31,564 nt of DNA, from the IMG/VR virus record IMGVR_UViG_2802429242_000004. One strand, written 5' to 3'. Below are positions 6,283 to 31,564 of the stretch, piece after piece. Each line of letters opens with the position of its first letter. Within the stretch, counting starts at the first letter, position 1. The stretch is from a virus. Taxonomy: Duplodnaviria > Heunggongvirae > Uroviricota > Caudoviricetes. The position numbers were made by a program, and so were the translations under genes. The notes beneath the pieces were generated by a model. The model worked only from the letters and a program-made list of their open reading frames with translations, searched no databases and had not been told where the DNA came from.

Positions 6283-7584
6283 ATGGAAAATATAAAGATT
6301 GATAAGTTTCTCACTATTCAAAAAGTTGATATTCCTCTTAAGAAAGTGAATATATTTATTGGGCCTCAGGCACAGGGGAAAAGTGTCATTGCAAAGCTAA
6401 TAAAATATTTTAAAGATTACCCTATGGATATACTACGAGCTTCAACAGAGGGTAAAACTAAAAGAGATATATTGAAGGAGCAAAAGAATAAGTTTAGTAA
6501 AATTTTCCCTCAGCAGTATTGGGCTGATGATGAGTTTTTTATTGAGTATAGTAATAAGCACTATTGGGTGCGGATTACTAATCGAAAAGATAGCAAAGGG
6601 TCATTGAAAATAACCCTTTCTGAGAATTTAACGAAGACGATTGCTAAACTTCGTTTGATTGTACGAAAGGATTTAGATGAAAATATTGAGAATTCACTTG
6701 CAGAAAGCGTTACGAGAAGACGTAAACGCGGAATTGAACATGAATTGCGAGTATGTCTTTCTCTAGGATTGTTTTCAGAACCAGAAACAAAGCTTGAAAG
6801 TGTTTTTTATATCCCCGCAGGGCGCTCTTTTTTTGCTAACTTGCAAAAAAATGTGTTTTCATTTTTATCCAGTAGTATAGAAATTGACTACTTTTTGACA
6901 GAGTTTGGTTCTCTGTATGAACAAACAAAAAAATTATTTAGCCAAGATTACATGATTAGGATGCTTAGGGGGGCTGTGCCTCAACATGTTAATAAGCTTG
7001 TGGAGGAGTTGATTTGCGGAAAATATATAACAGAAAAGGGTGAGGATTTTATTCGTCATGCTGCTAAAAAGACGAATCTTAACAACTCGAGCTCAGGGCA
7101 GCAAGAAGCGTTACCAATGGCTTTAATGTTATCCTCATGGCCGTATTTACAGTCTATGACTAGTAAGAGTTTTATTATTGAGGAGCCGGAGGCTCATCTG
7201 TTTCCTTCTGCCCAAGCAAAAGTTGTATCTTTAATAGCCTCAGCGTATAACCAAGCAGAAAGCTATTGTAGCTATACAATAACAACACATAGCCCATATA
7301 TTCTAAGTGCCTTCAATAATTTGATTCAAGCAGGTAATGCATTGAAGTGTATTAAGGGCAAGAATAATGCCGATATCGAACGCTTATATAAGCTTGTTCC
7401 AGAGTCTCAAATTATTGATTTTGATGATGTGACAGCTTATATGGTTAATGCTGGGAAAGTGACGGAAATACTGGATTCCGAACTAAATATATTAGATGCG
7501 AATGAAATAGATAGGATTTCCTCTATTTTTTCAGAGACTTTTGATGCATTGATTGATATCGAATATTCGGCTACTGTGAATTAG
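6283..7584 (+). CDS. ABC-type (AAA_21/OLD-like) ATPase without a nuclease domain; candidate defence component
   Basis: 433 aa; Walker A GPQAQGKS (K33), ABC signature-like SSGQQEAL, Walker B FIIEEPE, H-loop TTHS; region is strongly AT-rich compared with the flanking phage genes. Confidence 0.75.
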   Translation: MENIKIDKFLTIQKVDIPLKKVNIFIGPQAQGKSVIAKLIKYFKDYPMDILRASTEGKTKRDILKEQKNKFSKIFPQQYWADDEFFIEYSNKHYWVRITNRKDSKGSLKITLSENLTKTIAKLRLIVRKDLDENIENSLAESVTRRRKRGIEHELRVCLSLGLFSEPETKLESVFYIPAGRSFFANLQKNVFSFLSSSIEIDYFLTEFGSLYEQTKKLFSQDYMIRMLRGAVPQHVNKLVEELICGKYITEKGEDFIRHAAKKTNLNNSSSGQQEALPMALMLSSWPYLQSMTSKSFIIEEPEAHLFPSAQAKVVSLIASAYNQAESYCSYTITTHSPYILSAFNNLIQAGNALKCIKGKNNADIERLYKLVPESQIIDFDDVTAYMVNAGKVTEILDSELNILDANEIDRISSIFSETFDALIDIEYSATVN

Positions 7585-7592
7585 GTGATTGA

Positions 7593-8030
7593 ATGTGTAA
7601 AAATTGCAAAGGAAAAACAAAAAATAAAATCATTGTGCTATCTGATAAAGGAACGTCAACGCAATTGTCAGTCATAAATGATAATGAGTTGGAGGTTGAG
7701 CATAAGTTAATAGATGGTTGCGCTATTGTTGTTGGGGAGCGGTGTGATCATTATTTGAAGATTTATAACAATCAGGATGTTTCACATCTTTTTGTTGAAC
7801 TTAAAGGAAGTGATGTTGAAAAAGCTGTTAAACAGATAGTGACAACTTTAAAGTCAGGTGTGATTAATGTAGGTGCTAAAGAAAAAAAACATGGTGCTAT
7901 TGTTAGCACTAGGAATCCGCTAAACTCAACAGAAACCAATAAGTTAAAGAAGAAAATTCTTTTGAGTGACGGAGTGAATTTGCATTTCTATAAAATGAAG
8001 GCGCAGCAAAAAATAACTTCTTTTACATGA
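7593..8030 (+). CDS. Small protein with PD-(D/E)xK-like motif; candidate nuclease effector
   Basis: 145 aa; 8 bp after the ATPase stop with its own RBS aggtga; N-terminal CxxC, then D41/D52 ... E69-L-K71 (HLFVELKGSD); lysine-rich C-terminus. Confidence 0.5.
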   Translation: MCKNCKGKTKNKIIVLSDKGTSTQLSVINDNELEVEHKLIDGCAIVVGERCDHYLKIYNNQDVSHLFVELKGSDVEKAVKQIVTTLKSGVINVGAKEKKHGAIVSTRNPLNSTETNKLKKKILLSDGVNLHFYKMKAQQKITSFT

Positions 8031-19258: not shown

Positions 19259-19862
19259 TTCGCGACTGCTGCCGACCGGCTCATCACCGCTTGAAGTTGC
19301 CGCCGCAAAAGCCTGTGCGGAAATTGAAAAAACGCCGGTCAGTATTCGTGAGCTGTGGAACCCGGACACCTGCCCGGCAAATCTGCTGCCGTGGCTGGCG
19401 TGGTCATTTTCGGTTGACCGCTGGGATGATAAGTGGCCGGAAGCGACAAAACGCGCTGTTATCCGCGATGCGTATTTCATTCACTGCCATAAGGGCACTA
19501 TAGGCGCAATCCGGCGCGTGGTGGAGCCGCTCGGCTATCTGATTGAGGTGAGGGAGTGGTGGCAGCTCAACGAGGAGCCGGGGACGTTCCGCATCGTTGT
19601 TGGCGTGCTTGAGCAGGGTATTACCGAGGAAATGTATCAGGAGCTGGAGCGCCTCGTTGCTGATGCAAAACCGGCAAGCCGCCATCTGACGGGACTGGCT
19701 ATCAGTTTAAGTACAACCGGCAACATTTTTGCCGGTGCGGGATGCTATCACGGTGACGCCCTGACGGTTTATCCCTACACCCCGGAGGCCATTATTGTCG
19801 GAGGGGATTATTTCCCGGCCTCGGCCATTCATTTAATTGATAACCTGAGAGTAAACGCATGA
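19251..19862 (+). CDS. I: Baseplate protein I
   Basis: 203-aa ORF overlapping J upstream and H downstream. Confidence 0.85.
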   Translation: MSDSRLLPTGSSPLEVAAAKACAEIEKTPVSIRELWNPDTCPANLLPWLAWSFSVDRWDDKWPEATKRAVIRDAYFIHCHKGTIGAIRRVVEPLGYLIEVREWWQLNEEPGTFRIVVGVLEQGITEEMYQELERLVADAKPASRHLTGLAISLSTTGNIFAGAGCYHGDALTVYPYTPEAIIVGGDYFPASAIHLIDNLRVNA

Positions 19863-21076
19863 CAGTGAAATACTACGCCATTCTGACTAATCAGGGCGCA
19901 GCACGGCTGGCTAACGCGACGATGCTCGGCAGTAAGCTGAATCTGACGCAAATGGCCGTTGGTGATGCGAATGGTGTCTTGCCGACACCAGATCCGGCAC
20001 AGACAAAACTGATTAACCAGAAACGCATCGCGCCGCTGAATCTTCTGAGTGTTGACCCGAACAACCAGAGCCAGATTATTGCGGAGCAAATCATCCCTGA
20101 GAACGAGGGCGGATTCTGGATCCGTGAGATTGGGCTTTATGATGATGAAGGCGTACTCATTGCGGTGGCGAACTGCCCGGAAACGTACAAACCGCAGTTG
20201 CAGGAAGGCAGTGGTCGTACCCAGACTATCCGCATGATTCTGGTTGTCACGAATACCGAAGCTATTACGCTGAAAATCGACCCGTCGGTGGTACTGGCGA
20301 CCCGTAAATACGTGGATGATGAAGTCCTGGAATTAAGGCTGTATGTGGATGACCAGATGAGAAACCACATTGCCGCACAGGATCCTCATACCCAGTATGC
20401 ACAGAAACATAATCCGACATTTACCGGAGAACCAAAAGCGCCGACGCCTGCCGCAGGAAATAACACCACGCGGATTGCGACCACTGAGTTTGTTCAGGCC
20501 GCTATTACCGCTCTGATTAACGGTGCGCCAGCCACGCTGGACACACTGAAAGAAATTGCCGCAGCCATTAACAATGACCCGAAATTCAGTACCACCATTA
20601 ACAATGCGCTGTCAGGTAAGCAGCCACTGGATGAGACGCTGACTCATTTGAGTGGAAAGGATGTTGCCGGTCTTCTCGCATACCTTGGTTTGGGAGAAGC
20701 GGCAACGAGGAACGTCGGAACGGATACCGGGCAAGTACCAGATATGAGTAGTTTTACAACGGGGCACTCTGGAGCAGCAGACTGGCCGAATCCTAAATCT
20801 GGATGGAGTAAGGGGCCGGATGGGGTAATTACACAATGGGGTATTTTCGGTTTCCCCGTTGGACAGACAGGGACGAATGTTGTTTTCCCGCTACCTTTCC
20901 CCGCGCGGGTCGAATCAATTACACTGACAATGGCAGATATCCAGGAGTCTCTGCTTTCTCCAGCAACCATGCCTGCTTATGGAGTTAACTCAACTGGTAC
21001 TTCAAGAACGGGTTTTACAGCCCGTATGTCAGGCGCCGGTGGGTTTAATCTTTGCTATATAGCGAAAGGGAGATAA
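19859..21076 (+). CDS. H: Tail fibre protein H (constant N-terminus fused to currently expressed variable C-terminus)
   Basis: 405 aa; constant part to about residue 275 (..AGLLAYLGLGE), then the recombination site; the C-terminal ~130 aa lie inside the invertible segment. Confidence 0.85.
   Translation: MTVKYYAILTNQGAARLANATMLGSKLNLTQMAVGDANGVLPTPDPAQTKLINQKRIAPLNLLSVDPNNQSQIIAEQIIPENEGGFWIREIGLYDDEGVLIAVANCPETYKPQLQEGSGRTQTIRMILVVTNTEAITLKIDPSVVLATRKYVDDEVLELRLYVDDQMRNHIAAQDPHTQYAQKHNPTFTGEPKAPTPAAGNNTTRIATTEFVQAAITALINGAPATLDTLKEIAAAINNDPKFSTTINNALSGKQPLDETLTHLSGKDVAGLLAYLGLGEAATRNVGTDTGQVPDMSSFTTGHSGAADWPNPKSGWSKGPDGVITQWGIFGFPVGQTGTNVVFPLPFPARVESITLTMADIQESLLSPATMPAYGVNSTGTSRTGFTARMSGAGGFNLCYIAKGR
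20673..20698. repeat. Left invertase crossover site (hix/gix-like 26-bp site inside H)
   Basis: ttctcgcatacc-tt-ggtttgggagaa: two imperfect inverted 12-bp half-sites around a central dinucleotide; the 15-bp core ttggtttgggagaag is perfectly inverted at 22592-22606. Confidence 0.65.
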
Positions 21077-21080
21077 CAGA

Positions 21081-21524
21081 ATGAATAAAGTTAAAAGTGT
21101 TTACAGCCCGTCCGAAAATGCAATCTACAACGCAGCGCTATATGAAAGTTATATCAAGGAGGGGACATGGCCGCAGGATGGTATTGAAATCAGCGATGAG
21201 GATGCTGTCAGATTTAATGGGGGAAATAAGCCAACAGGAAAAATGCTGGGAATGGTTTCAGGGACCCTTGCATGGGTTGATGAGCCGCCGCTTTCACCAG
21301 AACAGAAAATATCAGATGCAGAAAACATGAAAGCCACATTTCGTGCAAAAGCTGACAGTGAAATATCCTGGCGTCAGGATGCTGTTGATGCTGGTATCGC
21401 AACTGATGAAGAAACTTCAACTCTCACCCAATGGAAGAAATACCGTGTGCTGCTGATGCGTGTTGATACATCAACAGCCCCCGATATTGAATGGCCTACA
21501 CCTCCGGCAGTTCAGGCCAGATGA
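21081..21524 (+). CDS. G: Tail fibre assembly chaperone G (for the current H C-terminus)
   Basis: 147 aa; C-terminal motif TSTAPDIEWP typical of tail-fibre assembly proteins. Confidence 0.82.
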   Translation: MNKVKSVYSPSENAIYNAALYESYIKEGTWPQDGIEISDEDAVRFNGGNKPTGKMLGMVSGTLAWVDEPPLSPEQKISDAENMKATFRAKADSEISWRQDAVDAGIATDEETSTLTQWKKYRVLLMRVDTSTAPDIEWPTPPAVQAR

Positions 21525-22098
21525 CATCCGGCGCGGTGCTGGTATCTGTTGCCGTCACCGCGTCAATGTAATCCAGCACGGCGTTAAGGCGGGTGGTTTC
21601 TGCCTGCGTCAGCCTCCGCCCGGCCTGTAATTTCAGCTGAATCAGACTGATGGAAGCCATTGCAGCATCAATCAGTGACTGGCGCTGTGCTTCTGCCGCG
21701 TCTACTGCGGCGCAATGCTGTGCCTCAGTATCGGTCACCCATTTCTCACCATCCCATTTATCGTATGGCGTTAACGGGGCGATAGTGGTTGTATTTTCGG
21801 GGTAATCACCCGGAGTTGTGATTTCTTTGGCGTCTCCCGTTTCGGTGTTATAGACGATTTCTCCGCGATGGTCTGGCACATATTCCCATGAGTTTAAATC
21901 CGCAGAGCGGCAGATGGCATAACCAGCTTTATATGTTCCTGGTGCATCTAAACAGGAACATGCCGGAATACCGACACCAACAGCAAGATATTCAGTTGAT
22001 GTGGAAATATATTCTCGTGTTTCACCATTATAATTATAGACAGTAATATCCCCCGCCTTCGTGGCAATAAGCTCGCTATTTAATACGGCATTATCCAT
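21496..22098 (-). CDS. Alternative tail fibre assembly chaperone (G')
   Basis: 200 aa on the opposite strand inside the invertible segment; same C-terminal motif (TSTAPDVIWPELP); its 3' end overlaps G convergently. Confidence 0.8.
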   Translation of the reverse strand: MDNAVLNSELIATKAGDITVYNYNGETREYISTSTEYLAVGVGIPACSCLDAPGTYKAGYAICRSADLNSWEYVPDHRGEIVYNTETGDAKEITTPGDYPENTTTIAPLTPYDKWDGEKWVTDTEAQHCAAVDAAEAQRQSLIDAAMASISLIQLKLQAGRRLTQAETTRLNAVLDYIDAVTATDTSTAPDVIWPELPEV

Positions 22099-22606
22099 TA
22101 TGCAGCCCTCACGATGTAATTAAATGAAAGGTTACGAGGGCGCATTGATATCCATGCCCCGGTAAAATTATCCTCCGCTGTCCTTTGAGTACCCGTTATG
22201 GAGTTATCTGCTGATGCAGGAACATAATCGCTATTATTTCCTGCTTTAGGATTAGCTGGGTTTCCAACAGTTATAACAGAATCAGCAGTAGCAAAAGCGA
22301 TACCTACTTTGACATTAGTATTCAGATCGTAACCGTAATAATCCTGCAAAGCTGTACGAATAAATGTTGCAGCCTGACCACTTAGCAATGAACGCCCCGT
22401 ATCAATCCCTCTAGAATCATCCCAGCCACGAATAAACTCACCACGTAAATCAGGCAATTTATTTGTCGGGTAAGCCTTTGCCAGTTCCGGGTATTCTTCA
22501 GCAGAAAAAGCTGCTCCGTTGCATTTCAGCCAGCCTGTTGGAGGTGTCTCTGAAGGCCACGGAACAGGTGCACCAACAGGTAATGCTGAACCTTCTCCCA
22601 AACCAA
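22098..22606 (-). CDS. Alternative (silent) tail fibre C-terminal segment H'
   Basis: Minus-strand reading frame continuous from the right crossover site (encodes ..LGLGEGSALPVGAPVPWP..); no own promoter or N-terminus, so expressed only after inversion. Confidence 0.75.
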
Positions 22607-22618
22607 CGTTTATGAAAA
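22593..22618. repeat. Right invertase crossover site (hix/gix-like)
   Basis: ttctcccaaacc-aa-cgtttatgaaaa; half-site TTCTCCCAAACC resembles the Gin/Hin half-site pattern (recalled), central AA. Confidence 0.65.
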
Positions 22619-22673
22619 TGCAGAGATAATGGCTAACTGGCATCATCCCCGGTTTTTATTCAGGGGATTGATC

Positions 22674-23267
22674 ATGCTTATTGGCTATATACGCGTGTCA
22701 ACAAATGACCAGAACACGGAATTGCAGCGTAACGCGCTGGAGTGCGCAGGATGCGAGCGGATTTTTGAGGATAAAATCAGTGGCACGAAGTCCGACCGAC
22801 CGGGACTGAAAAAACTGCTCAGAACATTATCAGCAGGTGACACTCTGGTAGTCTGGAAGCTGGACCGGCTGGGGCGTAGTATGCGGCATCTGGTCATTCT
22901 GGTTGAGGAGCTGCGCGAACGCGGCGTTAATTTTCGCAGCCTGACAGATGCTATTGATACCAGCACGCCGATGGGGCGTTTTTTCTTTCATGTGATGGGT
23001 GCCCTGGCTGAAATGGAGCGAGAACTCATTGTCGAGCGGACACGCGCCGGACTGGAAGCGGCCAGAGCCAAAGGGCGTATTGGTGGCAGACGTCCGAAGC
23101 TCACCGCGAGTGAGTGGGAACAGGCAGGACGGTTGCTGGCTGCGGGTGAATCACGTCAACGCGTGGCGCTGATTTTTGATATTGGCCTGTCCACGCTCTA
23201 TAAAAAATTCCCCTCATCAGCGGCAAAGAATAAATTGTGTCATCCCTTAGCCAACCGGGACAAATAG
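22674..23267 (+). CDS. Site-specific DNA invertase, serine recombinase (Hin/Gin/Cin/Pin family)
   Basis: N-terminus MLIGYIRVSTNDQ with the catalytic serine; resolvase/invertase catalytic domain plus C-terminal HTH; immediately next to the right crossover site. Start trimmed from the track's 22629. Confidence 0.9.
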   Translation: MLIGYIRVSTNDQNTELQRNALECAGCERIFEDKISGTKSDRPGLKKLLRTLSAGDTLVVWKLDRLGRSMRHLVILVEELRERGVNFRSLTDAIDTSTPMGRFFFHVMGALAEMERELIVERTRAGLEAARAKGRIGGRRPKLTASEWEQAGRLLAAGESRQRVALIFDIGLSTLYKKFPSSAAKNKLCHPLANRDK

Positions 23268-23326
23268 CCTGACATCTCCGGCACAACTGAAAATAACACT
23301 CACCCATTAACCACGGAGTTAAACGG

Positions 23327-24517
23327 ATGAGTGACTATCATCACGGCGTGCAGGTGCTGGAGATTAACGACGGCACCCGCGTCATTTCCACCGTATCCAC
23401 CGCCATTGTTGGCATGGTCTGCACGGCCAGCGATGCGGATGCGGAAACCTTCCCCGTCAATAAACCGGTGCTGATCACCAATGTGCAGAGCGCGATTGCA
23501 AAGGCCGGTAAAAAAGGCACGCTGGCGGCATCGTTGCAGGCCATCGCTGACCAGTCAAAACCGGTCACCGTTGTCGTGCGCGTGGAAGACGGCACCGGCG
23601 ACGACGAAGAAACGAAACTCGCGCAGACCGTTTCCAATATCATCGGCACCACCGACGAAAACGGTCAGTACACCGGGCTGAAAGCCCTGCTGGCGGCGGA
23701 GTCGGTAACCGGTGTTAAACCGCGTATTCTCGGCGTGCCGGGACTGGATACCAAAGAGGTGGCTGTTGCACTGGCATCAGTCTGTCAGAAGCTGCGCGCT
23801 TTCGGGTATATCAGCGCATGGGGCTGTAAAACTATTTCCGAGGTGAAAGCCTACCGCCAGAATTTCAGCCAGCGTGAGCTGATGGTCATCTGGCCGGATT
23901 TCCTCGCATGGGATACGGTCACCAGTACCACCGCCACCGCGTATGCCACCGCCCGTGCGCTGGGTCTGCGCGCTAAAATCGACCAGGAGCAGGGCTGGCA
24001 TAAAACGCTGTCCAACGTCGGGGTAAACGGTGTTACCGGCATCAGCGCCTCTGTATTCTGGGATTTGCAGGAGTCCGGCACCGATGCTGACCTGCTTAAC
24101 GAGTCAGGCGTCACTACGCTGATTCGCCGTGACGGTTTCCGATTCTGGGGTAACCGTACCTGCTCTGATGACCCGCTGTTCCTCTTTGAAAACTACACCC
24201 GCACCGCGCAGGTGCTGGCCGACACGATGGCTGAGGCGCACATGTGGGCGGTGGACAAGCCCATCACCGCAACGCTGATTCGCGACATCGTTGACGGCAT
24301 CAATGCCAAATTCCGTGAGCTGAAAACAAACGGCTATATCGTGGATGCGACCTGCTGGTTCAGCGAAGAATCCAACGATGCGGAAACCCTCAAGGCCGGA
24401 AAACTGTATATCGACTACGACTATACCCCGGTGCCTCCTCTTGAAAACCTGACCCTGCGCCAGCGTATTACCGATAAATACCTGGCAAATCTGGTCACCT
24501 CGGTTAACAGCAATTAA
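23327..24517 (+). CDS. FI: Tail sheath protein
   Basis: 396 aa, same length and position as P2 FI. Confidence 0.92.
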   Translation: MSDYHHGVQVLEINDGTRVISTVSTAIVGMVCTASDADAETFPVNKPVLITNVQSAIAKAGKKGTLAASLQAIADQSKPVTVVVRVEDGTGDDEETKLAQTVSNIIGTTDENGQYTGLKALLAAESVTGVKPRILGVPGLDTKEVAVALASVCQKLRAFGYISAWGCKTISEVKAYRQNFSQRELMVIWPDFLAWDTVTSTTATAYATARALGLRAKIDQEQGWHKTLSNVGVNGVTGISASVFWDLQESGTDADLLNESGVTTLIRRDGFRFWGNRTCSDDPLFLFENYTRTAQVLADTMAEAHMWAVDKPITATLIRDIVDGINAKFRELKTNGYIVDATCWFSEESNDAETLKAGKLYIDYDYTPVPPLENLTLRQRITDKYLANLVTSVNSN

Positions 24518-30031: not shown

Positions 30032-30058
30032 AAAAAATAAGCCCGTGTAAGGGAGATT
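30032..30058. other. attR: attR core (P2-type 27-bp core aaaaaataagcccgtgtaagggagatt)
   Basis: Matches the P2 attP/attB core as I recall it; lies at the phage/host junction and coincides with the cyaR terminator. Confidence 0.7.
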
Positions 30059-30118
30059 ACACAGGCTAAGGAGGTGGTTCCTGGTACAGCTAGCATTTTA
30101 TGGGTTATGTTTTTCAGC
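30032..30118 (-). ncRNA. cyaR: CyaR (RyeE) Hfq-dependent sRNA
   Basis: Minus strand reads gctgaaaaacataacccataaaatgctagctgtaccaggaaccacctccttagcctgtgtaatctcccttacacgggcttatttttt (87 nt), matching CyaR as recalled, including the anti-SD-like CCACCUCCUUA and a terminator hairpin plus U-run. Confidence 0.8.
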
Positions 30119-30139
30119 GAAACAGATAATAACCTTAAT

Positions 30140-30202: not shown

Positions 30203-31564
30203 TCACTTACCGTGCGGGTTACGCGTGGTTTCCCCGGAGAAATTACGCATCAGCAGTGCGTAATTCAGCTCGAGATCCTGCGGAACCGGGAGCCACACGG
30301 TATAGCCATCGCCAGGCGCGACCGGCATCGCTTCACCTTTGGCGTTTTCCATGTGCTCAAGGGTAAAGTTGATATTGCCCTGTGGCGTCATCAGTTCCAG
30401 GCTGTCGCCAACGGAGAATTTATTTTTCACCGCTACGGCTGCCAGAGAGCCTTTACGCTCACCGGTAAACTCTCCAACAAACTGCTGGCGGTCAGAAACG
30501 GAATAACCGTATTCGTAGTTCTGGTAATCGTCGTGAGTATGACGACGCAGGAAACCTTCGGTGTAACCACGATGCGCCAGGCCTTCCAGTGTTTCCAGCA
30601 GGCTGGTGTCGAACGGTTTGCCCGCAGCGGCGTCATCGATAGCTTTACGATAAACCTGCGCGGTACGTGCACAATAGTAGAAAGATTTAGTGCGGCCTTC
30701 GATTTTCAGCGAATGCACGCCCATTTTGGTCAGGCGTTCAACGTGGGCGATGGCGCGCAGATCTTTCGAGTTCATGATGTAAGTGCCGTGCTCATCTTCA
30801 AACGCGGTCATATACTCGCCCGGGCGCTGGGCTTCTTCGATCATAAACACTTTGTCGGTTGGCGCACCGATACCCAGCGTCGGCTCGACGTTTTGCACCG
30901 GAATCGGCTCGTATTTGTGTACGATGTTGCCAACGTCATCTTCTTTCCCTTCCTGCACGTTGTACTCCCAACGGCAGGCGTTGGTGCAGGTGCCCTGGTT
31001 TGGATCGCGTTTGTTGATGTAGCCAGAGAGCAGGCAGCGGCCGGAGTAGGCCATGCACAGCGCGCCGTGAACGAAGATTTCAAGCTCCATATCCGGAACC
31101 TGATTGCGGATCTCTTCAATCTCTTCCAGCGACAGCTCGCGGGAGAGGATCACGCGGGTCAACCCCATTTGCTGCCAGAATTTCACCGTCGCCCAGTTTA
31201 CGGCGTTGGCCTGCACGGAAAGGTGGATCGGCATTTCAGGGAAGTGTTCACGCACCAGCATAATCAGCCCCGGATCGGACATAATCAGTGCGTCCGGCCC
31301 CATTTCCACCACCGGTTTCAGATCACGGATAAAGGTTTTTAGCTTGGCATTGTGTGGCGCAATGTTGACCACGACATAAAACTTTTTCCCCAGCGCGTGG
31401 GCTTCATTGATGCCGAGCTGGAGATTTTCGTGGTTAAATTCGTTGTTGCGCACACGCAGGGAGTAACGCGGTTGCCCCGCATAAACAGCATCTGCGCCAT
31501 AAGCGAAAGCGTAACGCATATTTTTCAGCGTTCCCGCCGGGGAAAGGAGTTCCGGTTTAAACAT
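30203..31564 (-). CDS. yegQ: Host U32-family peptidase-like protein YegQ (RlhA)
   Basis: 453-aa ORF starting MFKPELLSPAGTLKNMRYAFAYGADAVYAG, recognised as E. coli YegQ; codon usage and GC differ from the cargo; convergent with ogr as in the K-12 yegQ-ogrK locus. Confidence 0.85.
   Translation of the reverse strand: MFKPELLSPAGTLKNMRYAFAYGADAVYAGQPRYSLRVRNNEFNHENLQLGINEAHALGKKFYVVVNIAPHNAKLKTFIRDLKPVVEMGPDALIMSDPGLIMLVREHFPEMPIHLSVQANAVNWATVKFWQQMGLTRVILSRELSLEEIEEIRNQVPDMELEIFVHGALCMAYSGRCLLSGYINKRDPNQGTCTNACRWEYNVQEGKEDDVGNIVHKYEPIPVQNVEPTLGIGAPTDKVFMIEEAQRPGEYMTAFEDEHGTYIMNSKDLRAIAHVERLTKMGVHSLKIEGRTKSFYYCARTAQVYRKAIDDAAAGKPFDTSLLETLEGLAHRGYTEGFLRRHTHDDYQNYEYGYSVSDRQQFVGEFTGERKGSLAAVAVKNKFSVGDSLELMTPQGNINFTLEHMENAKGEAMPVAPGDGYTVWLPVPQDLELNYALLMRNFSGETTRNPHGK

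Follow-up and report, generated by a model that had tools for sequence, protein, structure and literature searches.

Are two 26-bp sequences, one lying within a tail fiber gene and the other just upstream of a DNA invertase gene, the crossover sites of a genetic switch, and to which family of inversion systems do they belong? The window (the whole stretch of DNA analyzed here, 31,564 nucleotides) represents a single assembled orientation. It holds a complete P2-like prophage, with an integrase at 1-1014, structural genes, and host flank past ~30 kb. The first-pass annotation had proposed a left and a right crossover site with the architecture of the hix and gix sites, and both 26-mers were found in the window exactly as it had written them:

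20673-20698, + strand: left crossover site (pixL-like), TTCTCGCATACC-TT-GGTTTGGGAGAA, with outer half TTCTCGCATACC, core at 20685-20686, and inner half GGTTTGGGAGAA
22593-22618, + strand: right crossover site, TTCTCCCAAACC-AA-CGTTTATGAAAA, with inner half TTCTCCCAAACC, core at 22605-22606, and outer half CGTTTATGAAAA

We consider it very likely, with a probability of roughly 0.93, that these 26-mers are Din-family (Hin/Gin/Cin/Pin) sites of the Pin/e14 type and that they belong to a tail fiber switch in the prophage. This reading is directly supported by the site architecture, the identity to pix, the intact invertase, the in-frame fusion in both orientations, and the flips that occur naturally in other genomes. 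The 2-bp staggered cleavage, the dependence on Fis and an enhancer, and activity in the source strain are derived from the family and would be expected here by analogy.

Two inverted sites with a common core and inner half

The left and right sites together form the top-ranked inverted repeat (I1) of the 19-25 kb region. We searched all 31.5 kb of the window with the Din consensus, TTCTCNNAAACCWWGGTTTNNGAGAA, and the two sites are the sole matches with up to three mismatches, compared to 0.00 matches expected from 100 shuffles. Relaxing the search to four mismatches revealed no further Din-consensus site in the window. A single 12-nt half-site searched with two mismatches does not rise above chance (4 found versus 2.5 expected), indicating that the signal resides in the full 26-bp architecture. 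The internal dyad symmetry of the sites, which covers 10 of 12 positions on the left and 8 of 12 on the right, bears out the proposed hix/gix-type arrangement of a 2-bp core flanked by imperfect 12-bp half-sites.

When read in the same polarity, the two sites have 15 nt in common, consisting of the core, the inner half, and one additional base, such that 22592-22606 reads as the reverse complement of 20685-20699. The left and right sites differ in their outer halves. The central dinucleotides, TT in the left site and AA in the right site on the + strand, are identical in the same polarity, and the sites are inverted with respect to each other. The left site is part of the tail fiber gene H and encodes ..LLAYLGLGE.. 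in the H frame, while the distance from the right site to the start of the invertase gene is 55 bp.

Inversion would exchange the C terminus of H and its assembly gene

The sites enclose two oppositely oriented cassettes, each of which pairs a C-terminal part of H with a tail fiber assembly gene:

20687..22604, 1,918 bp: invertible segment, core to core; seen inverted in L003 and L148 and in the window's orientation in L002
19859..20686, + strand: constant N-terminal part of H (P2 H-like, Phage_tail_fib N-terminal domain), which stays put and joins either cassette
20687..21076, + strand: cassette A, in the expressed position; H C terminus with a gp53-like C-terminal domain, giving a full H of 405 aa
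21081..21524, + strand: tail fiber assembly gene of cassette A (Caudo_TAP)
21496..22098, - strand: tail fiber assembly gene of cassette B (tfaE-like, Caudo_TAP), with ~89% DNA identity to e14 tfaE
22098..22604, - strand: cassette B, in the silent position; alternative H C terminus with a tail-collar domain, which fuses in frame after inversion to give a 444-aa H

Gene H spans 19859-21076 in the window's orientation. We inverted the segment from core to core in silico, which keeps the reading frame and lengthens H from 405 to 444 aa; both versions of H are open, and each is then followed by an assembly gene. The 444-aa H is found as an annotated protein in locus L001. Because the left site lies in frame within H at ..YLGLGE.., inversion swaps the C terminus of H along with the assembly gene.

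This arrangement bears on annotation. H is a two-state gene, and the silent cassette at 22098-22604 (- strand) should not be annotated as a separate or truncated tail protein. Furthermore, assemblies of this invertible region can rightly differ in orientation. The open reading frame of cassette B (22098-22646, - strand) continues through the right site to an ATG at 22646, producing a 182-aa open reading frame that overlaps the upstream region of the invertase gene and constitutes an annotation trap. Its relatives are annotated variously as "phage tail protein," as "gp53-like domain-containing protein," and as pseudogenes. The two assembly genes converge, and their 3' ends share 29 nt (21496-21524); tfaP and tfaE of e14 overlap by the same length (L004, 4518-4546).

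The sites are closest to the pix sites of e14

We compared the two sites with published Din-family sites from PMC3241671 Table 3 (hixL, hixR, gix, cix, pix, mix, and others) and with the Mu, P1, and K-12 records. The sites read from the genome records are the following:

Mu gix (Mu genome record): TTATCCAAAACC-TC-GGTTTACAGGAA
P1 cixR (P1 genome record): TTCTCTTAAACC-AA-GGTATTGGATAA
e14 left (K-12 record): CTCTCGAAAACC-TT-GGTTTGGGAGAA
e14 right (K-12 record): TTCTCCCAAACC-AA-CGTTTATGAAAA

The right site matches pixR (PMC3241671 Table 3) at all 26 positions and is also identical to the e14 DNA of K-12 (L004, 5606-5631), while the left site matches pixL from the same table at 23 of 26 positions. 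Identity is 19-20/26 to hixL, 17/26 to gix, and 18-21/26 to cix. Judged by sequence identity, both sites are most closely related to the pix sites of e14 (Pin) rather than to hix or gix. The earlier assignment to the Hin/Gin family thus holds, but the choice of hix and gix as the closest relatives does not. The half-sites that had been cited in its support are genuine: TTATCCAAAACC is a half-site of Mu gix (NC_000929), and TTCTTGAAAACC is one of hixL (PMC3241671 Table 3). The AA/TT core also agrees with hix as had been stated, and cix, pix, and mix have it too.

The similarity to the e14 Pin/pix system of E. coli K-12 (pinE, stfP/tfaP, tfaE/stfE) extends to the layout of the locus. The left site agrees fully with pixL in its inner half and core, and the spacer between site and invertase is 55 bp in the window compared to 54 bp in e14 and 54 bp in Mu. 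However, e14 is a defective lambdoid element, whereas the window holds an intact P2-like myovirus with the P2 H constant region. The left outer half of e14 (CTCTCGAAAACC) differs from that of the window (TTCTCGCATACC) at three positions, cassette A of the window, with its gp53-like C terminus, is unrelated at the DNA level to e14 stfP/tfaP, and the C terminus of the window invertase is 13 aa longer than that of e14. The e14 Pin/pix system is reportedly the subject of work by Plasterk and van de Putte in 1985.

The P2-type locus of enteropathogenic strain EPEC E2348/69 has the same inner half and core as the window, a right site identical at 25 of 26 positions, and the same cassette layout. It is nevertheless a remnant without the constant part of H and with a degenerate left outer half, and its invertase agrees with that of the window at 147 of 192 positions (~77%). 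The closest phage record is that of phage pro483, which has an annotated DNA invertase and matches the region with 95% identity at 79% coverage. Invertible tail fiber segments of this kind in P2-like prophages of E. coli are likewise present in many RefSeq genomes.

Mu (Gin/gix) and P1 (Cin/cix) resemble the window in that their 26-bp sites lie in frame in a tail fiber gene, encode (Y/N)LGLxE, and flank an Sv-U / U'-Sv' layout; their invertases are 76-77% identical to that of the window, and their enhancer lies in the 5' end of the invertase gene. In contrast to the AA/TT core of the window, Mu gix has a GA/TC core, and in P1, cin is located on the opposite side, with cixL overlapping the 3' end of cin. 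The Salmonella Hin/hix system likewise has 26-bp sites with an AA core, and the window presumably has its Fis/enhancer control and subunit rotation mechanism in common with it (PMC3798978). The outcomes differ: Hin flips a promoter and thereby switches flagellin genes, whereas the window flips a coding segment and exchanges protein C termini. In addition, hin lies within its invertible segment, while the invertase gene of the window lies outside.

Both orientations occur in other genomes

We built the predicted postinversion junction and searched for it in complete E. coli genomes. The flipped junction is present as one continuous match, with at least 80% query coverage, in 391 E. coli genomes. 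The whole segment, also at a coverage of at least 80%, is flipped in 5 E. coli genomes and in the native orientation in 8. Locus L003 (strain HCM-28C-2) carries the window's segment inverted on the same P2 backbone, and locus L002 carries it in the window's orientation with frameshifted cassettes. A base-by-base reading of the L003 junctions confines the parent switch to the 15-nt common stretch, and the outer bases 20684 and 22607 remain with the flanks. In keeping with the inversion model, the common stretch starts right at the core, and in no case do the outer halves move with the segment.

The first-pass annotation had named junctions outside the 26-bp sites as the result that would speak against it, and in the comparative form of this analysis, every flipped junction falls inside the sites. 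It had also claimed that the sites fix the exchange point to single-nucleotide resolution within the H coding frame. The location within the H frame is upheld. The resolution is coarser than claimed, since the sites are identical over 15 nt and the junction sequences consequently place the exchange no finer than 20685-20699 / 22592-22606.

A census of viral contigs yielded at least 120 loci for each exact 26-mer. These loci were chosen for having one of the two 26-mers, so it is the partner sites that give the informative results. Every one of the 362 sites among the matches listed has an AA core, and the inner half hardly varies. Of the 126 pairs, 125 are in inverted orientation and turn the conserved half toward the segment, at a spacing of 1,021-2,827 bp. 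The 117 loci that could be oriented from the H side to the invertase side yielded 24 clusters of near-identical segments, half of which (12/24) contain both orientations. The inverted alignments of flipped pairs of near-identical segments (n = 20) reach both segment ends, leaving 0 unaligned bases. The identical site pair is found in 25 of the 117 oriented loci, all of which had been selected for one of the two 26-mers.

Locus L148 (6472-8401) carries the window's segment flipped at 97.4% identity next to an H-side flank without a megablast match to the window, a sequence match indicating that the same cassette pair circulates among different phages. Viral contigs with both window cassettes are almost absent at a megablast coverage of at least 80% because cassette content is very diverse. 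Seven viral contigs (L009, L013, L044, L045, L057, L070, and L076) end exactly at a 26-bp site; these ends could be assembly breaks from mixed orientations or could merely reflect how the loci are stored.

An alternative explanation is that the repeat is a by-product of two cassettes that both start with GLGE and that the flips arise through general homologous recombination. The 15-nt common stretch is indeed coding in both cassettes, and the junctions compared place the exchange no more precisely than to these 15 nt. However, the outer half-sites lie outside the repeat and still fit the Din half-site pattern, which this explanation does not predict, and the right outer half, beyond the joint common to both cassettes, is nonetheless identical to pixR. 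A dedicated invertase gene is situated 55 bp away, and the AA core is invariant in the 362 related sites among the matches listed. RecA-dependent recombination requires far more than 15 nt, which further counts against this explanation. We therefore consider homologous recombination extremely improbable as the source of the flips and retain site-specific inversion at Pin-type sites.

Three viral contigs (L026, L049, and L200) carry three to four Din-type sites each and could be shufflon-like, with more than two tail fiber variants possible by their sequence. The window itself could be such a multisite shufflon of the Min/p15B type, with extra cryptic crossover sites and more than two tail fiber variants. 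These related loci with three to four sites lend it some precedent, as does a three-repeat P2-type locus in EPEC that yields four variants (PMC4272514). In the window, by contrast, just two sites are detected at up to four mismatches to the consensus, and the segment has exactly two cassette pairs. We rejected the shufflon for the window, as a locus with two sites only makes it hardly credible, and a two-state switch of the Pin/e14 type remains our preferred reading.

Inversion in relatives and the state of the switch in the window

Inversion has been observed experimentally at related loci. Goldberg et al. reported in 2014 that inversion takes place in clonal cultures, both at e14 and at P2-type prophage loci of EPEC E2348/69 (PMC4272514). 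The P2-type locus (NC_011601.1, 2977580-2979467; PMC4272514, Table S1) is biased in orientation, with ~93% in the forward state. We read its sites from NC_011601.1 as TTCTTCTTTCCC-TT-GGTTTGGGAGAA and TTCTCCCAAACC-AA-CGTTTAAGAAAA, and the reported bounds, 2977580 and 2979467, fall exactly on the two central dinucleotides. PacBio reads analyzed by Forde et al. (PMC4134206) reveal tail fiber inversions at 26-bp crossover sites in the prophages of EC958; the same paper tabulates the EC958 crossover sites against Sandmeier's 1994 consensus and discusses that Din invertases can work in trans on related sites.

The window encodes its own invertase next to the right site:

22674..23267, + strand: serine DNA invertase, 197 aa, Resolvase (PF00239) and HTH_7 (PF02796) domains, open reading frame intact
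22692..22763, + strand: putative recombinational enhancer, a gap-free 56/72 match to the annotated P1 Cin enhancer; also conserved coding DNA (protein N terminus)

The invertase is 85.9% identical to PinE, 77.4% identical to Cin, and 76.4% identical to Gin. The active-site serine region, GYIRVSTNDQ, is conserved, and the protein matches the solved Gin structures 3uj3/4m6f with E values of 1e-95 to 1e-93.

In the P1 record, the crossover is placed at the center of cix, and cin nt 19-90 are annotated as the enhancer. By sequence correspondence with this enhancer, 22692-22763 is presumed to be a Fis-dependent enhancer, although the same stretch also encodes the conserved N terminus and its conservation is therefore not independent evidence. 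Candidates for the G-N13-C pattern in the enhancer-equivalent stretch are located at gene nt 22-36 in the window, pinE, and gin, but not in cin, and at nt 71-85 in all four genes. The two candidates of the window are 49 bp apart, compared to a center-to-center spacing of 48 bp for Fis sites.

A simple scan found no sigma-70-like promoter for the invertase in 22400-23400. On the invertase strand, between the right site and the invertase start codon, a terminator-like hairpin with a T run behind it (22635-22654) might shield the invertase gene from read-through of the late operon.

These features raise the possibility that the sites are genuine Pin-type sites that are frozen in the window, with the invertase silent, the enhancer impaired, or the left site too weak, and that only the relatives flip. 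The missing promoter-like site upstream of the invertase would agree with this, as would the left outer half-site, which departs from the AAACC motif (CATACC) and might bind less well as a result. The frameshifted cassettes of L002 indicate that such loci do decay, and the P2 locus of EPEC is strongly biased toward its ~93% forward state. On the other hand, the invertase open reading frame is intact and highly conserved, and neither the two cassettes nor the two assembly genes are interrupted. The identical site pair recurs in the 25 of 117 oriented loci described above, with both orientations present in half of the near-identical clusters, and Din invertases may act in trans on related sites (PMC4134206). 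We consider a frozen locus improbable, albeit less so than the two alternatives discussed above. A tail fiber switch of the Pin/e14 type that, from its sequence, is apparently intact in the window is the reading that we favor.

Proposed course of the inversion

The reaction of the Hin invertase proceeds through dimers, a Fis-bound enhancer, serine cleavage, subunit rotation, and religation (PMC3798978), and the switch in the window would be expected to follow a comparable course. A dimer of the adjoining invertase (22674-23267) would bind each site, and the two bound sites would meet on supercoiled DNA with the Fis-bound enhancer in the 5' end of the invertase gene. The catalytic serines would then cut all four strands, forming 5'-phosphoserine links, and the breaks would be staggered by 2 bp at the two cores (20685-20686 and 22605-22606); from Hin/Gin/Cin biochemistry and the curated P1 annotation, we infer that this staggered cut marks the exact point of exchange. 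One pair of subunits would turn by 180 degrees, after which the 2-nt 3' overhangs would pair owing to the matching cores, and the ends would be religated, leaving the 1,918 bp inverted. The receptor-binding C-terminal part of H would thereby be swapped, changing a 405-aa protein for one of 444 aa or the reverse, together with the matching assembly gene. The expected outcome is a mixture of phage particles with two host ranges, and we predict that the prophage releases such particles.

A relict site in P2 and a possible joint between tail fiber modules

The site occupies the same tail fiber reading frame in the window, classical P2, Mu, e14, and P1, where it encodes (Y/N)LGL(G/Q/R)E (P2 gene H, Mu S, e14 stfP, and P1 S). 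Classical P2 (NC_001895, gene H; L237, 2358-2383) contains a lone 26-mer, TTATCGAATATC-TC-GGTTTACAGGAA, which matches Mu gixL at 23 of 26 positions. It lies at the same codon position and in the same frame as the left site of the window (..EYLGLQE..), and classical P2 has no invertase. A second copy of the inner half-site was not found in the ~13.5 kb of P2 examined. The homology between the H proteins of P2 and the window stops at the site joint, and in the window, the core is the exact point at which the P2 H constant region gives way to an e14-type cassette set.

The relict site in P2 and the end of H homology at the joint fit a role of the sites as module boundaries in tail fiber evolution. 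A more ambitious proposal is that the 26-bp site is a portable in-frame joint for invertase-mediated exchange of cassettes between unrelated phage backbones; we put this forward tentatively and regard it as rather doubtful. If true, it would quantify an old idea, reportedly traceable to Sandmeier (1994), and not reveal a new one. Sandmeier is said to have reviewed these sites as module boundaries in tail fiber evolution in 1994, and Haggard-Ljungquist et al. reportedly described a vestigial crossover site in P2 gene H in 1992. Previous work already documents the sites, the family of enzymes, and the mechanism, as well as their presence in P2-like E. coli prophages, and the locus adds nothing to the understanding of DNA invertases.

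Prophage setting and cargo genes

The gene for the CyaR/RyeE small RNA is located at 30035-30120 (- strand, 100.7 bits), just beyond the prophage end, which places the prophage at a cyaR-adjacent site. It is followed by a host U32 peptidase gene at 30203-31564. Two cargo genes lie between the replication and portal genes, at 6283-8030. The first encodes a 433-aa AAA_15/AAA_21 ATPase that matches PADLOC models PDC-M29A (2e-31) and AriA (2e-25), and the second encodes a 145-aa protein with a weak match to PDC-M29B (3e-4). Based on these matches, the two genes are a candidate antiphage defense pair in a P2 cargo hot spot.
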